From assembly GCF_963921235.1 (NCBI RefSeq), contig NC_086106.1, positions 70,184,001 to 70,248,000 on the forward strand: a stretch of DNA of 64,000 bases, given 5' to 3'. The notes under the pieces were generated by a model. It was not told the origin of the DNA. It saw nothing but the letters and a program-made list of their open reading frames with translations, and ran no database searches. Shown here piece after piece: positions 7,134 to 36,152 of this stretch. A program made the position numbers and the translations under genes. Within the stretch, counting starts at the first letter, position 1. Every line of letters starts with the position of its first letter. The DNA is from Mobula hypostoma. Lineage: Eukaryota.

Positions 7134-8925
7134 AGTACTGTGTCAAAGTCTTAGGCACATATATAGAGCCTATCAAAAGTATTCACCTCCTCTTGGAAGT
7201 TTTCATGTTTTATTGTTTTACAGCATTGAATCACAGTGGATTTAATTTGGCTTTTTTGACACAGATCAACAGAAAAAGACTGTTATGTTGGAGAAAACAG
7301 ATCTTGACAAAGTGATCTAAATTAATTACAAATATAAAACATAAAATAATTGATTGCATAAGTATTCACCCCTTTAATATTACACACCAAATCATCGCTA
7401 GAGCAGCCAATTGGTTCCAGAAGTCACATAATTAGTTAAATTGGATCTGTTTTTGGAGAACTGTGTGTAGTCAAGGTGTTTCAATTGATTGTAATAAAAA
7501 TACACCTGCATCTGGAAGTCCAACTGTTGATGAGTCAGTATCCTTGCAAAGATTACACCATGAAGGCAAAAGAACATTCCAAGCAACTCTGCAGAAAAGT
7601 TACTGAAAAGCACCTGTCAGGTGATGGATGTAAGAAAATTTCCAAGTCGCTGAATATCCCTTGGAGTACAATTCAGACAATCATCAAGAAATAGAAAGAA
7701 TATGGCACAGCTGGAAATCTGTCCAGAGCACTGAGTGACTGTGCAAGAAGGGGACAAGTGAGGGAGGCCATTGAGAGACCTATGACAGCTCTGGAGGAGA
7801 TCCAAGTTTCAGTGGTTGAGATGGGAGACACTGCACATACAACAACTGTTGTCCAGGTGTTTCACCAGTCACAGCTTTATGGGAGAGTGGCAAAGAGAAA
7901 ACTACTGTTGAAAAACTTATATGGAATCTCAGCTAGAGTTTGCCACAAGGCATGTGGAACTCTGAAGTCAGGTGGAAGAAGGTTCTATGGTCTGATAAAA
8001 CCAAAATTCAATGTTTTGGCCATCAGATTAAACACTATTTGGCATAAGCCAAGCACAACACATGATAAAAAAAAACTCACCATTCCTATTGTGAAGCATG
8101 GTGGTGGCTGCATAATGCTGTGGCAGGTCCTGTTGCATCACTGTAGAAGGACCTGGAAGGCTTGTGAAGGTAGAGGGTAAAATGAATGCAGCAAATACAG
8201 GGAAATCCTGGAGGAAAACACAATGCAGTCTGTAAGAGAACTGCAATTTGGGAGATTTGTTTTCCAGCAAGACAATGATCCCAAGCATAAAGCCAAAGCT
8301 ACACAGCAGCAGTTTAAAAACAACAAAGTTAATGCTCTACAATGGCCAAGTCAGAGTCCAGACCTCAATCCAACTGAAAATTTGTGGCTGAACTTGAAAA
8401 GTGCTGTTCACTCATGATCCCCATGCTACCTAACAGAGCTTGAGCAGTTTTGTACAGACCAATGGGACAAATTGCAGTGTCCAGATGTGCAAAGCTGATA
8501 GTGACCTATCCACACAGACTCAAGGCTGTGATGGTAAACCATTATTCTGATATGGGTCCCAATTGTGGACTGAGACTGGGAAAGGAGCAGGGAGAGAGGA
8601 ATCATGGTTGAGAAAAGGGGAAGGGAGAGGGAAGGGCTTGGGAAGCATTATCAAGGCATTCTGTAATAATAAATCAATTGTTTGAAATCAAATGACCTTG
8701 CCTAGTGTCTCAGAGCTGGGTGTATCTGCACTCATGCTACCCACCCGCTCCTGCCTCTCCTTCTCTGTCACCTGTCCCACTCGCCTCCCACAGTGCTCCA
8801 CCCTCGCCATTCCTAACATTCTTTGCTCCTCCAGATTTACAAACTTACTCTCTGCCTCAAGTTGACAAATACAGTACTGTGCAAAAGTTTTGGGCACCCC
8901 AGCCTCAGACTTTCTCACAGTCCAA
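7134..8925. mobile_element. Non-autonomous Tc1-family element with CAGTACTGTG termini, hosting a Tc1 insertion
   Basis: cagtactgtgtcaaagtcttaggcac at 7134. Palindromic cagtactgtgcaaaagttttgggcac...cagactttctcacagt at about 8872-8921. Splits the V-SINE. Confidence 0.55.
7164..8530 (+). mobile_element. Tc1 (IR/DR-type) DNA transposon with decayed DD34E transposase (ATG 7560); right TIR missing
   Basis: Left TIR agagcctatcaaaagtattcacc after TA, with inner DR aagtattcacccc near 7360. Motifs [55 protein letters not shown]. Confidence 0.92.
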
Positions 8926-8983
8926 TATACCACACACTATCTCTAAATAAATCGAAGGAAGGCTGAGGCAGTGGTTGACAAGA

Positions 8984-9177
8984 ACTGTTCCCTCTAAGCT
9001 ACACAGGTGTGTAAATGTGCAGTAACTGAACTGCTCCTGTGCACTTAGTCTTTGTTATTGTGCAGCTGTAATTTTCTGTTCTATAATGTGCCACACAGTT
9101 TTTAGACCATATAAAAGTGTCCTGCTCAGAACCATAGTTGGTCGGTGCAGCTGTGAAATAAAATAGAGAGAACATAC
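8984..9177. mobile_element. hAT-family MITE
   Basis: Termini actgttccctctaa ... tagagagaacata. Flanked by a degenerate duplication of host CR1 sequence (tgacaag / cgaccag). Confidence 0.6.
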
Positions 9178-9602
9178 CGACCAGGGAAGTCAAAGACAGC
9201 AGATAAGTAAAAGAGAGGGCATACAATAATAACAAGTATTGATGGGAAGCTAGAGGATTGGGAAGCTTAAAAAAAGGCAATTAAAAAAGTGAGAATGAGA
9301 GGTAACTTGATAGAAGTGTACAATTTGACAAGAAGCATAAATCTTATGGATTGACTGCTTTACGGAAGGTAAAAAGTGGGAGTAAAGGGAGCTTTTCTTG
9401 TTGAATCCTGGTGGCACTCTGTCAAGGTTAGGGTTGGGTACACTATAGTTCACATTATACGTGAATAATCTGGACGATGGAATTGATGGCTATGTCGCCA
9501 AGTTTGCAGATGATGCAAAGAAACGTGGAGGAACAGGTAGTGTTGAAGAAGTTGAGAGCATGCAAAAGGAATTAGACAGATTAGGAGAATAGGCGAAGAA
9601 GT

Positions 9603-29724: not shown

Positions 29725-30455
29725 AAGAGTTATAGAGTTGCAGTATGCAGCATAGACCAACTCAACATACTGACAAATTTGCCTACCTGACCTAGTTCCA
29801 TTTGAGGTTTGGCTTCTTTCCTATCCGTAAATTTGTCCAAATGTTTTTTTAATGGTGTAATTACGCGAGCCTCCGGCATCTTCCTGGTAGCTTATTCCAC
29901 ATTCCCATTACCTTGTGTGAGAAAAAGCTATCCGTCATGTCCCTTGAATTTATCCCCCTCACCTTAATGTCTGTGCCCTCTAGATTTGGAGTCCTCTAAC
30001 ATTTGGAAAAAAAAGACCCTATCACCCTATGACTTTATGTACAATAGTTCTAGAAGATCACTCCACAACCTCCTACACTTGAGGGAGAAAAAGCTCGTTG
30101 ATTGTATCTATCCTTAAAATTCAGGCCCTCTATTCCTGTTAACATTCTTGTCAATGTTTTCTGCGTACTTTGAAGCTTAATGACATCTGGTCCATAGCTG
30201 CATGACTAGAAATACACCCTATACTCCAACATCTTCCACAGTTGCGACATGATGTCTCAACTTTCATATTCAAAGCCCCAACCATAGAATGCAAGCAAGC
30301 CAACTGACCTCTTCACCATCATATCTACCTATGCTGCTACTTTCAGGGAACTTTGTAATTGTACTCCTATTTCATCAATACGCTCAAGTACCCTGCTATT
30401 GGTTTTATAGGTCTTGCCCTGGTTTAACTTCTCAAATTTTAACATGTTAACTTTA
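29725..30455 (-). mobile_element. Old CR1 3' fragment
   Basis: Reverse contains actccaaatctagagggcacagacattaaggtgagggg and other RT C-terminal remnants. Confidence 0.7.
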
Positions 30456-30459
30456 TATG

Positions 30460-30686
30460 TGGAGTTGGTGCATAACACAAGTCCTGGTTGAGTGACACTG
30501 ATGCCAGATTGACAGTCTCTGAAGAGTACTGATAATGGCTGCGGTCACCCATCTTGTAAAGTCACTGCCCTGATTAAGGGAATGACAAACCACGTCTATA
30601 AGAAAATATAGCCAAATCATGGTGATGGATGGAGAGATAAAGACTATGACTGCCCACGTCATAACACGTAATGATGATAATGATAA
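30460..30686 (+). mobile_element. RTE-related short retroposon 3' part
   Basis: aagggaatgacaaaccac motif resembles the RTE/Bov-A box. (TGA)n-like tail. Confidence 0.45.
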
Positions 30687-31203
30687 CTCTAGTTATCTTT
30701 CCACTGATGTTCCTTAACCTGTTGAATGTTTCCCCAATAATTTACAGTATATTTCAATGAAATTAAAGTAGTGGATTTGTAAGAGGTCATACAATAAGTA
30801 GAGCTGTTGAAGGGTCTCAGAGTGTACCAGGCCTAGAGAGAATTTCAGTTATAGAGAAAGAGAGAGAGCCAGGACTGGAGTTAAAATCAAGAACATGAAT
30901 TTACAAATTGCATCATTCTGGGCTGTTAGACATTTTAATTGATCAGTTAGATTATCTAAGTTAGGATGCAGCAGCAGAAGTTTGAGTAAACTCAAATGTT
31001 ATGGAGCAAGGTAACTGATCCCTAGATGGGAATTTCATCAGGTGTGGATATACGGTTATATGGTTATATAGATATGAGTGACATTACAATTGTGGAAACA
31101 GGTGCTATTACTAGTGAGAAGGATATTGGGTCATAAATTCAGTTCATGTTATATCCGATCAAATGGGAGCAGCTAAAATTGCCATGGAAGATATCAAAGT
31201 AAT

Positions 31204-31571
31204 TGTCCTATGGGGGTGTGCCTTATTCTGACTGTTGAAAGTCGCTTCCTTTGTGATTGGTTGGTTTAGAAGATGCAGCTGCTTTTCTCATTGGATAGAT
31301 GCCTGGTGTCCAGTTTCGAATATCTTGGGTATATAAAATAGGACATGGAAGGGGCTTGCTTTCTTCCTCCCTTGTTTAAGGCAAGGGTGCACATGATGAT
31401 TGAGAAGGTATTGTGCCTGTTGAATGTACATACGTTTGTTGAATAGCTCTGTATTGTCTGTAACCTGGGGAACATGAATGTTGGGTTGAATTTTAATGTT
31501 TGTAAATAAATGATTAATACACCTATTCACAGAGAGTGCCTTCTGCATCACAAATCTGATTCAGCATTACA
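31204..31571 (+). repeat. 5' LTR of ERV
   Basis: TG...CA termini, reverse CCAAT boxes, TATATAAAA near 31330, AATAAA near 31505. Homologous to 33991-34210. Confidence 0.88.
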
Positions 31572-31573
31572 TT

Positions 31574-31594
31574 TGTCTCTGCTTTGAGCAGGGT
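31574..31594 (+). promoter_or_regulatory. Primer-binding site, tRNA-Ser-like (degenerate)
   Basis: gctttgagcagggt matches 12/14 of GCTGTGAGCAGGAT, the complement of the tRNA-Ser(CGA) 3' end as recalled. Lies just after the 5' LTR. Confidence 0.5.
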
Positions 31595-31689
31595 CTACTT
31601 TTTGAGTAGAAATGTATTTCCTTAAGAGGTTATTTAAAAGCGAGGACCCTCAAGATGAGAGATGCAGAATTCTAGGGTGGACAGATAAC

Positions 31690-32720
31690 AATGCGCGCTT
31701 CGGAAGTCTCATTAATGACTGATGGGTTACGTGATGCCAGTAGATTGGTCGGACCAGTTAGATTTTGCCGGGTTTGAAATGGGACATTGTTTCTACACTT
31801 AAATTTTTGAGTTTTCCCAAAAGAAAATATAGCTGGTGGAATGCTCCCAGGTTTTTTGCAGCAATTGTAAGACATCAGTATAAAACAATAGCGAATCTTA
31901 AGAAGGAATTGGAAGATCTCAGTCAATACTGTATTACTCTGAGTGAATCACTATTGATGGCCCAGAGAAGGGCTACGAAGTTAGAAAATATGGATGTACA
32001 AGTCGTCTGTCGGCTAATGAAAGTACAGAAGTAATGAAAGGTGGCTTGAGGAGGCCTGTTGAGAACCTCATCTTGTTAAGGTTCGAGCCATATTGAGACA
32101 GAGCGATGATCATACAGCAGGGCTGGGAGATGAGGATATCTGGCTGGATAATGAAAATGAGGGAGAGAGATTTAATCCTTGAGATGTTTGCCTTCTCCCT
32201 TGTGTGTCCAGAACAGTATGGGCCAGGCCAGTGATTATGTGTTCCCACACCTGCCTTTGGGGGGGGCATCAGGCTGCAGTTTCTTTCTCTCAAGAGAGGG
32301 AGGGGGGAGGCTCAGGAATGTGTAGGGATAAGGATGGTATGATTGACCCCTTCGACACAGTAGAGCTCAGAAAATTAACTGCTAAGGAAATAGCAATTTT
32401 TGGGGATAGGTACAGTCAAAATGCTGGGGAGTCTTTGGTCATGTGATTATTGAGAGTACATGATGAGCGGAGTATCGGAGCGATCCTGTCTAACAGAGGG
32501 GTGGGTGCCTTTGGAAGCCTATTGTCCCAACATGCGATCAGTAACGCCCTGAGAACACTGCTTGCTTCCTCAGAGCACAATGAATTACTATGGATTAGGG
32601 TAATGGCAGTTTATGCATCCCACTGAGTGGAATTTAAAAACCCAAGTGCAGTGGAGCACAGTGACTAAAGTTCTACGCGAGTAGGCTCTTATCACAGAAA
32701 TATACCATGATAGAGGTATC
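31690..32720 (+). pseudogene. gag: ERV-L-like gag remnant
   Basis: ITLSESLLMAQRRATKLEN...VCRLMKVQK, VKVRAIL...DEDIW and LTAKEIAIFGDRYSQNAGESLVM*LLRVHD are collinear with recalled ERV-L Gag blocks. Confidence 0.75.
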
Positions 32721-33189
32721 CCACTTTGTTATTTGTTTTCCCATTTTTTTTTGTAATTGGTTTTAGCAATTATTCATTTTTCATAGTGGCTATTTGAAAT
32801 TTGTTTGAAAATTGGTAGAAATTTGGGTAACTTTATTCTGGATATGAGATGCCCACATTTCAGAGGGAATTGAGCATGGGGAGCAATTCTTGTAGTTGTC
32901 TTGTTTTTGTGTTTTCTAAATATCTAGTGACTATTCAGGAGCGAGTACATTTGTATCTCCCTGCATTACAGAATGACAAAGTGTGGATGCTAATTTGTGG
33001 TGGGAGATCCTGTTATACATTCCTGTGGATGGTGTTTGAATTTGTACACTGGTCCAACAGATTGCTGAATTTGTATGAAGACTCTTTGTATGAAGCGATT
33101 CCACTGTTATCAAATTTTTTGATGACAACGAAAGACTGTTGGGGGAAATTATCTGGCCTCTTGGGTTTTGGTATTTTGTTTTGGGGGAG

Positions 33190-33950
33190 CTAGGAGGGGA
33201 CAGTCTATTCCAGCCAACCTCAACCCAGAGTATGGTAACAGCGTTAAGAGCCTTGATCCTTAATAGCTCCGGTGGAGTAAGTGCTTTAAGAGCTGGTATT
33301 TCCCTACACACCATTTATATAATTGGAATGTCCTGACACTTAAAATGATTTCCCCACCTGACAGAGTGTTGACAGGAGCAGTAATCTGGGATGACTGTTT
33401 CTATGTCAAATGGTGTTGTGAAGCTGGGCACTTTTTGGAAGCTGAATGGCACTTACCAGATATGCAGTTCCTAGGCTTACCCGCGGTTCCCACAGGGTGG
33501 TGCAGTTGATATGTGCTGCTGTGTGTATCCCACCCCAGTGCCCTGGATGAGCATCTTGCCCATACTGATTGGTAAGAGGGCTATTAAAAAGGAAGGATGT
33601 TTTGTATGATTGCCTTTCTCAGCATGGTACTGCTATTCAGTCCCAGGAATCGATGCCTTGGATTACCTACCCACAAAGGAAGATGGCACTTATACTGCTA
33701 ATGGTTGAGAATGCTGCACCTACATTCCTGATGGGTTGGTCATATCTCAAAATCAGTGTATAAAATTAAGCGGGGGACCAGCTCTTTGCCTATTACACTC
33801 CAGGGTGGGGCTAGTAGCCTTTTGCGGCACAGGGAGGCTGGTGGACTACTAGAGTGTACTGGCAGGTGACTATTGGATTTACAGTACTGCGTATTTTACT
33901 CGTGTTTTACGTATAACATAGTTGGGAGCTTGTGAGAGTCATACAAGTCT
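33190..33950 (+). pseudogene. env: Gamma-type env remnant (SU C-terminus, cleavage site, ISD/CX6CC region, TM helix)
   Basis: NGTYQICSS*AYP..P.GW, IGKR/AI, ALDYLPTKEDGTYTANG*ECCTYIPD, then a Trp-rich and hydrophobic stretch. Confidence 0.75.
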
Positions 33951-33990
33951 GAGGGTTGGGTCATCACATTTGCAACTTTCGAAGGTAGTG

Positions 33991-34210
33991 TGTCCTGTGG
34001 AGGTGTGCCTTGTTCTGATTGAGAAGGTATTCTCTTCGTGCACTCTTGTTTCTTGAAGGTACACATGTTTGTTGAATATTCAACTCCAGTGTCTGTAATT
34101 TGGGGAACATGAATGTTTGGTCGAATTTACACCGTTTGTAAATAAATGATTAATACAGTGAGTGCTTTCTGTATCACTTTCCAGACCCACAAACGTAAGT
34201 CAACATTACA
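33991..34210 (+). repeat. 3' LTR of ERV (internally deleted)
   Basis: Preceded by PPT-like gaaggtagtg. Lacks the U3/TATA segment present in the 5' LTR. Confidence 0.88.
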
Positions 34211-36152
34211 GTACTTCTCAGAAATTACAACATGGTTCACTTCATGATCTTATCTCTGTTCTGAGCAGAATGGTAACAATACTCTATGTGAAGACCTCAT
34301 ATAATTTAGAAATGGACTTCTTGTATACTCAGAATTTGCATACACACTACTTGGCAGATTGCATAATGCAAAATGAAACTCAATCAGATTTCATTAGAAG
34401 CCTGAGCCCTCAGAGTTTTAGCTCATTGTGCAGCGTTGTAGCCGGGTTGCGAAGAGGAAAAGGAAAATGAAGAACAGTATCCTTCAAATCTCAGGTGTCT
34501 GCAAAATGCTTTATTGACATTTGCAATTTGATTTTGTTTCTAGTCACCATTGTAGCACTAACAAAAGTTTTCAATCTATACACAGCAAAGATACACAAAG
34601 AGTAAAGTAATTACTTGGAGTTATAATAATTAAAGGCAAATAGTGGCCCAAAGGTCTGGTTGGAATATCCCTGCTCTTTTTGAAAATGTTTCCTTGGAAT
34701 TTTTGCATTCTCTTGAGACAGCAGATGAAACCCAACTTACTGTGACATTACTGCACTCCCTTTATGACATATTTTTTTCAATTGGTTGTTATCAGTATCA
34801 ATTTACACTCCATGCAGTGTCAACGAGAAATAACATTAAATGAACCCCTTGGCAGTTGCCTGACTCCATTACACTGCATGACTCTGAATTTATTCTGCCA
34901 GTCTAGTGTTAGTGGGAAATTGAAATTGCTTCATAGTGACATTAAACATGCTTAGAGCTGTCTCCTTAAAGTTAAAATTGTAATTGTCTTTAAAAAGAAG
35001 ATCAAAGAGTCTCTGCCGATAAAGCAAAGTGGCAGATGTTAAAAATCCGGATGAAGGAAAGATATGGACTGGAAACACATAATACTTCAGTGAGTATATT
35101 ACAAAAAGAGTTGATTTAAGATCCTGTGTAGAGATGGCTCAGGCTCAATGTGGTTATGCTTGCATACTGAACTCTACTATGGAATTGAAGTCAGCAGCAT
35201 CACCTTTTAGAAGAAAAGTACAATGTAGAACCACTATTTTGCTTTGTATTAAGTATTAGCAGCTGAGCATGAATGTTAACCTTTAATACTGACTTCCTAC
35301 AATTTTTGAGGCATTGTGAGTTGAGTTCTTTTTGTTATATACTGCTGTGAACAAGTAATAGAAACAGGAAAGTCTGAAAATTCAATAAATTTACTCACAG
35401 TGTGCCCTTTGGACACTTTACTGTGCAATATTGATATACATTTTGCTTGAGTTCAACTGTCTTTCCTTTCATCAGTATGCAGGACAATATTGAAAATTTT
35501 ATGATTGTAAGACTTTTGACATTATAAAATATACTTGGTACAATAAAATTACTTGCAAAATATCTTCACCCTTCAGGTATTTCATGAGCTTTATTTAACT
35601 AGAATATGCAATTGGCTTTTGTTGTAACTGTAGTCTAATGAACTGCAATTATCAACATGATTTGCTGCTACAAAAGAATGTTTTGTTGGAAGATACACTG
35701 TCATTAGTCAATGAGTCTTACAATTCGTGGGTTATGACCGAAGAGAAACAGCTGGAGTTGCTTTGCACTTTTGTGCAAAGGTGTTTATTCTGTGCATCAA
35801 AAGATCAAACTTACAGAAATTTGTGAAAATGATGAAATGAAAACTGCCATAATTTACAAAAAGATATCTACCAGAAATCACAACATTAATTACCTACTAT
35901 GTCCAGTGTGAACTCCTGGCAGATCAATCTCCCTCTGTTCCTTAGAGTGAACTGGCCCATTTTTTTATAGTCATCAGGACATACCGTCATTAATTACCCA
36001 CAAAGTTAATTTAAGACTACACATGAATCAGAATGTGATGCACCCCACAACACAGTTACAAAATAAACAGAAGTATCTACCTTGAATAGAGTATACAAAC
36101 AATATATACACGTTTACACATCCTCATTACTAAAAGAATTGAATAGTCTACA

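Follow-up and report, generated by a model that had tools for sequence, protein, structure and literature searches.

The LTR-bounded element at positions 31204..34210 of the 64,000-nucleotide stretch of Mobula hypostoma DNA analysed here (the window) carries gag and env remnants and no pol. With a probability that we put at roughly 0.7, the element is dead and fixed, one copy of a family that lacks pol, descends from a class III ray retrovirus with an env, and probably spread in germ cells by means of its own Gag and borrowed protease, reverse transcriptase (RT) and integrase. The single window locus shows no sign of function. What is new is its membership of a high-copy pol-less family with a selected gag and a dead env; the class III plus env architecture itself is already known. 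The first-pass annotation had called the host a probable cartilaginous fish, and RAG2 identities bear this out, placing it in the manta/stingray group of rays (98% to Mobula birostris; Narcine 84%, Amblyraja 83%, sharks 74-81%, no bony vertebrate above 57%). The features of the element are as follows.

31199..31203, plus strand: left target-site duplication, GTAAT; a 5-bp duplication is a family trait
31204..31571, plus strand: 5' LTR, 368 bp, TGT...ACA, 77-89% identical to 39 other scored genomic matches
31256 and 31290, 31330, 31505, plus strand: 5' LTR signals, respectively two ATTGG boxes, a TATA box and AATAAA
31572..31594, plus strand: decayed primer-binding site for tRNA-Ser(CGA), from host tRNA genes and match counts
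31612..32707, plus strand: gag remnant of ERV-L/Fv1 type (tblastn, profiles), 3'-truncated, with stops and frameshifts; contains the N-terminal helical region, the VRA/DIW block and the N-terminal part of capsid
32708..32722: copy-specific deletion junction, about 860 bp gone by comparison with sister copies; bridged by a contig of organism B
32805..33904, plus strand: env remnant of gamma type, collinear with the env of locus L057, whose TM has database matches
About 33060, 33445 and 33571, plus strand: SU and cleavage marks of env, respectively a decayed CWIC-like motif, LNGTY and a furin-like GKR
33655..33732, plus strand: decayed CX6CC of TM, accompanied by ALDYL and followed by the membrane-anchor region; heptad repeat 1 is absent, as it is family-wide
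33981..33990, plus strand: degenerate polypurine tract, clearer in sister copies and in L057
33991..34210, plus strand: 3' LTR, 220 bp, TGT...ACA, with an internal U3 deletion of about 150 bp that is common to organism B
34211..34215, plus strand: right target-site duplication, GTACT

The two LTRs are identical at 173 of 202 aligned bases (K2P 0.16), and the flanking GTAAT and GTACT agree at 4 of 5 bases. A 5-bp duplication is found at solo LTRs of the family as well, 10 of 18 having flanks that match at 4 or 5 of 5 bases (5 of them perfectly), against 2/18 and 0/18 when 4-bp and 6-bp frames are tried. Six host tRNA-Ser loci were scanned, four Ser(CGA) and two Ser(TGA); the window's primer-binding site matches the 3' end of Ser(CGA) at only 12 of 18 positions, ungapped, and seven of the nine other copies tested match it at 15-17 of 18, the remaining scores being 12/18 for L057 and 11/18 for L150, where the scan lay off-site. 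HERV-S also has a Ser primer-binding site, and that of ERV-L is Leu. The paired LTRs with TG...CA-type ends and the 4/5 target-site match noted in the first-pass annotation are therefore all present at 31204..34210, and its Gag and Env blocks all lie on the plus strand, in shifting frames; its Ser-like primer site holds for the sister copies, although the window's own site is decayed, and its polypurine-like tract exists, although in degenerate form. Relative to the sisters, the ~860 bp missing from the window copy comprise the C-terminal third of Gag and most of a family-specific spacer. Just upstream of the element, window positions 30370-30700 hold a very high-copy repeat (read depth in the thousands), and the remainder of the 64 kb is mostly LINE and DNA-transposon debris.

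By tblastn the window gag remnant matches stingray Gag (E 1e-11 to 3e-13), electric-ray Gag (E 5e-8) and the sister open reading frame P0001 (51%). A Gag profile was built from 26 natural stop-free Gag stretches taken from the window, its sisters and ray loci further removed; of 1.84 billion proteins searched, 268 matched it at E 0.001. Names were looked up for 20 of the 150 proteins listed (7 of the 20 are nameless), and only ERV-L/Fv1-type proteins were seen among the named ones: an electric-ray "Friend virus susceptibility protein 1-like" protein is the best (E 2.8e-41), and a chinchilla ERV-L-type Gag (E 2.6e-13), rodent Fv1 (E 1.6e-10) and snake, frog, bird, killifish and pipefish proteins are also present. 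With a narrower profile of 15 family rows, Gag of stingray and electric ray still matches at E 1e-19 to 1e-24, the chinchilla protein at 3e-4 and Fv1 at 0.034. None of 16 gag regions has a Cys-His box. Pfam gave nothing significant for the window's own fragments, a word-based protein search with P0001 gave 970 candidates with none at E 0.01, the Gag profile found only ribosomal L19 noise among PDB sequences, and the ESM Atlas held no match at 0.9. The predicted model of the capsid region of a sister copy is helical (pLDDT 87), and its structural matches are led by capsids, namely the Arc C-lobe (Z 6.0, 78 residues aligned at rmsd 4.2) and foamy virus capsid (Z 5.9, 146 aligned at rmsd 4.8), both too low to exclude chance; Foldseek gave none at E 0.001, and a likeness to retroviral capsids at Z ~6 is suggestive only.

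The top database matches of the Gag profile are RefSeq "Friend virus susceptibility protein 1-like" models of Hemitrygon akajei and Narcine bancroftii, which fall in the same batoid clade as the ray elements in Gag (85) and RT (94) trees. They differ in being automatically labelled genes of a sister lineage, with ~30% identity in Gag, and we found no description of them as an ERV lineage. We note that one cluster (P0143) groups ERV-L Gag sequences of bird type that were submitted, on short contigs, as hypothetical proteins of Klebsiella pneumoniae and probably reflect contamination by a host, and that killifish (Nothobranchius; clusters P0017 and P0227) have many intact dUTPase-bearing ERV-L-type Gag and Pol open reading frames, suggesting recent activity there.

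The env of L057, a pol-bearing relative used here for comparison, has a CWIC near the start of SU, a furin-like site, heptad repeats, an ISD and CX6CC, which are gamma-type hallmarks according to the available text of PMC9967133. Its TM matches TLV_coat (E 2.4e-12), and syncytin-1 is its best PDB match (E 2.9e-9). The window env is collinear with it, which supports the gamma-type env first proposed; the combination of CWIC, ISD and CX6CC, as in the frog element XtERV-S discussed below, is present in L057 and decayed in the window. Of the 9 env intervals compared across the family, 5 have a modal length that breaks the frame, and in one of these the frame is broken in 23 of 25 copies. At least 18 of 19 copies lack about 40 codons, comprising heptad repeat 1 and half of the ISD; in at least 18 of 19, too, the heptad-repeat-1 interval is no longer than 9 codons, as against 50 in L057. 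The env selection test had too few sites and little power. In all 13 gag intervals the modal length keeps the frame, and no single stop is present in more than 4 copies. Shared breaks in env beside an open gag indicate that the replicating ancestors had an open gag but an env that no longer functioned, and env was thus already broken when the pol-less family spread. The window element, at first described as an env-bearing provirus, does contain an env remnant, but it belongs to a family that was not env-competent.

Searches of the genome gave 836 candidates with internal DNA, 1133 with the LTR and 682 with a Gag piece (40, 40 and 150 of which, respectively, were scored), figures that are not copy numbers. 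Eighteen of 29 LTR loci inspected are solo LTRs. The family layout is LTR, primer-binding site, gag, spacer, env, polypurine tract and LTR, without pol, and no class III pro or pol lies inside any of 25 close loci; pol in the long inserts of L016, L029 and L034 was considered and rejected, as these inserts carry LINE RTs. One and the same post-gag spacer occurs in 36 of 43 distinct loci, 17 of which were chosen by Gag protein search, a possible bias, and is matched by none of 15 pol-bearing relatives. In L023 (~2090-2540) this spacer is ~450 bp of DNA between gag and env that includes a TG microsatellite and a stretch resembling a poly(A) signal. Pairwise divergence between copies is ~20%. Contigs from three presumed-RNA runs match family copies mostly below 95% and are uninformative on expression.

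Purifying selection on the family gag shows in 36 copies, where non-CpG changes shared between copies are 52 synonymous to 71 nonsynonymous (42% synonymous) versus 104 to 345 (23%) for singletons (p 3e-5), and falls short of significance when only the 20 copies mapped in full are used (p 0.10 and 0.26; one of the frame controls there gave p 0.02). In the larger set, shifted frames gave p 0.54 and 0.20, and the N-terminal half alone p 0.01. Codon-position divergence in the capsid region of gag is flat. The absence of a signal in the 20 copies and in the capsid test favours an explanation in which the family was a fully passive parasite that needed only cis signals (LTR, primer-binding site, packaging signal and polypurine tract), like VL30 or ETn, and whose open gag and synonymous excess were inherited from an autonomous ancestor or renewed by recombination with a helper; that most divergence between copies is post-insertion decay also speaks for it. 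We regard this as unlikely, since the selection signal was measured among copies that share the pol-less spacer, env gained shared breaks over the same history while gag gained none, and the nearest pol-bearing loci known, at 64-74% DNA identity to the family in gag or env, are too distant for recent recombination to explain the shared variants. Very improbable is an origin of the copies as independent deletion products of an infectious, env-competent virus that reinfected and then lost pol copy by copy; env- and pol-bearing relatives do exist in the genome, but the single spacer that stands in place of pol in most loci and the shared env defects would not coincide in separate deletions.

The class placement of a dead copy of a pol-less family rests on pol-bearing relatives, because neither the window nor the family has pol; these relatives are linked to the family by the Gag tree and by DNA identity. 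The suggested use of the LTR to retrieve pol-containing relatives failed, in that none of the pol-bearing elements found has the LTR of the family, the one trace being a U5 match of 72% in L120. DNA searches with the pol of L070 gave 9 usable loci and with that of L074 none, both being swamped by inserted repeats, and a scan of viral contigs for reference retroviral Pol found none. Pol-bearing relatives with env in the genome are L057, L070, L074, L121, L163 and L165. Gag and pro are in the same frame, with a junction stop in L057 that is absent in L059. Screening 21 ray pol loci, not all of which extend beyond integrase, for a dUTPase core gave no match, and three control proteins were positive. 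Among the 36 long proteins that the Pol profile matched, sequences of amphibians, lungfish, killifish and stingray rank first; there are also clusters containing Mus and Gallus members, which we take to be MuERV-L and chicken ERV-L. The RT of the ray relatives is ~50% identical to that of the mouse ERV-L cluster.

Trees were quick IQ-TREE runs without bootstrap, and the window's own sequence is in neither the RT nor the Gag trees. The RT trees held no class II, foamy, snakehead, HERV-S or Gypsy rows, and L069 and L074 were left out of one and L164 and L074 out of the other; in them every class III row from rays groups with mouse and chicken ERV-L, and gamma-like proteins and two ray class I rows are split off with support 100. 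The batoid rows form one clade that includes the stingray protein (94) and does not join the chicken/mole pair; inside it, the loci nearest to the family in DNA identity group together with support 95. In the Gag tree, which left out the window (no qualifying match), L121, L164 and database proteins without a long enough match, the family (99) adjoins pol-bearing L070, L120 and L162 within a ray clade (99). The Gag profile match to Fv1 and this RT placement, the two checks that had been suggested, both support the class III ERV-L/S affinity originally claimed, and neither of the outcomes named beforehand as refuting it came about. An epsilon- or gammaretrovirus or a Gypsy retrotransposon with a captured env, for which the class I-like TM might speak, is extremely improbable given named Gag matches that are only of ERV-L/Fv1 type and 16 of 16 gag regions lacking a Cys-His box, and a class I reading in particular is refuted by the relatives' RT, with its identity to mouse ERV-L and full-support split from class I in trees that had no Gypsy row.

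Several other elements were observed in the course of this work. In L057 (G000:C91:58106600-58116599) an env 3' end and polypurine tract precede the 5' LTR (~8735-9580), an arrangement that resembles a tandem or partly duplicated provirus, and both flanks are 31-34 bp satellite; with 96% identity between its repeat copies, this lineage is far younger than the family to which the window copy belongs. L115-L117 and similar matches on small contigs C122-C163 represent a near-identical multi-copy class III element in which the RT active-site segment is tandemly repeated several times, either a young amplification or an assembly artefact. L124 and L125, in the same genome, have ERV RTs of class I (epsilon-like, YVDD-type), and their open frames are long.

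From these comparisons we infer the following course for the pol-less family. Its LTR would have driven a genomic RNA, which the family Gag would have packaged in preference to others; a co-packaged helper Gag-Pol, primed on tRNA-Ser, would have reverse-transcribed and integrated it, with env carried along as inert RNA. The putative donor of protease, RT and integrase is a pol-bearing class III relative. After insertion the window copy would have lost 860 bp internally and 150 bp of its 3' LTR and then decayed neutrally.

Contigs of organism B span both host junctions and both deletions at ~98-99% identity, and the 3' junction is spanned in organism D at ~94% and in organism C at low depth. 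The insertion is therefore common to three other organisms (B, C and D), is fixed, and predates those splits. LTR-LTR distances are 0.11-0.26 in 10 sisters, a range that includes the window copy. The LTR dating proposed at the outset thus yields a distance but not an absolute date, which we rejected: 0.16 corresponds to ~365 My at a rate assumed in PMC4422223 (in the text available) or ~80 My at an arbitrary 1e-9, neither rate being calibrated, and the accessible part of PMC10587355 gives a per-generation rate only.

The closest described counterpart is XtERV-S of African frogs, which joins a class III gag-pol to a class I env and has a Ser primer-binding site and a 5-bp target-site duplication (Yedavalli et al. 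2021, PMC8278194, available text), so the architecture, first taken as novel here, had already been published. As far as that text describes it, XtERV-S resembles the ray elements in having gag and pol of ERV-L type, a class I TM that contains an ISD and CX6CC, a CWIC close to the N-terminus of SU, a Ser primer, TGT...ACA ends, a 5-bp duplication, a YIDD active site and deleted derivatives, and in lacking a Cys-His box. It differs in having a dUTPase and in its tRNA-Ser(AGA/TGA), whereas the ray relatives are without dUTPase and match Ser(CGA); its deleted copies (n=19) keep little internal sequence, whereas the ray family has a whole selected gag, a broken env and hundreds of candidates. In the same source the authors expected the class III plus class I env structure to be common, and their discussion describes mammalian ERV-S as having env and no dUTPase. 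Going by that account, ERV-S/HERV-S is like the ray lineage in being class III, env-associated and dUTPase-less. A Ser primer is a further point in common. MuERV-L, HERV-L and Fv1 share with the ray lineage a homologous Gag, the RT clade and a 5-bp duplication (PMC6114882 and PMC11359688, both in part). ERV-L sensu stricto differs in having a dUTPase and no env, the canonical form being described as env-less in the available text of PMC6114882, whereas the ray relatives have env and no dUTPase.

Precedents for the proposed mechanism are MaLR, pol-less elements with ERV-L gag homology (PMC11359688, available text), and IAP 1-delta-1, whose Gag fusion acts in cis (PMC6466679, available text). 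ERVL-MaLR, going by its description in those excerpts, resembles the ray family in being non-autonomous class III, pol-less, homologous to ERV-L gag and abundant, with many solo LTRs; it differs in being mammalian and env-less with only traces of retroviral homology, whereas gag is still full-length in the ray family and its env relic is almost collinear. The ray family Gag nests among pol-bearing ray viruses, so its origin is likely separate from that of MaLR, and the family is likely a MaLR-like parasite of independent origin. The surprise at class III elements in chondrichthyans that the first-pass annotation implied is not supported: in the available text of Blanco-Melo 2024 (PMC11089739) clade III RTs outnumber clade I there, 2843 versus 2018, a count that also takes in snakehead-virus-like and foamy-like elements. 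Clade Huo, class III included, is reported from all major vertebrate lineages (Xu 2018, PMC6001957, in part), elephant shark has a snakehead-virus-like lineage (Han 2015), and 13 cartilaginous fish genomes have been mined for relatives of bird ERV-L-related groups (PMC12287698, in part). We found no published env-bearing ERV-L/S lineage in rays, and no pol-less derivative of one, in a search without most subscription journals and Repbase.

We offer a broader conjecture tentatively, at somewhat less than even odds: that batoids (electric rays, stingrays and devil rays) have an old env-bearing, dUTPase-less ERV-L/S lineage of their own, and that this lineage, present since batoids radiated, gave rise independently to a MaLR-like parasite by discarding pol, letting env die and keeping gag under purifying selection for cis-packaging. 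If true, the MaLR strategy would have arisen a second time, outside mammals, and here with the env relic still attached. The findings extend the "class III body with class I envelope" architecture to cartilaginous fish and support env-bearing viruses as the source of env-less ERV-L-type retrotransposons. The pol-less family represents a stage between virus and MaLR-like parasite at which gag selection and env decay are measurable over hundreds of copies, and fixed orthologous insertions such as that in the window can yield a minimum age for the lineage in rays.
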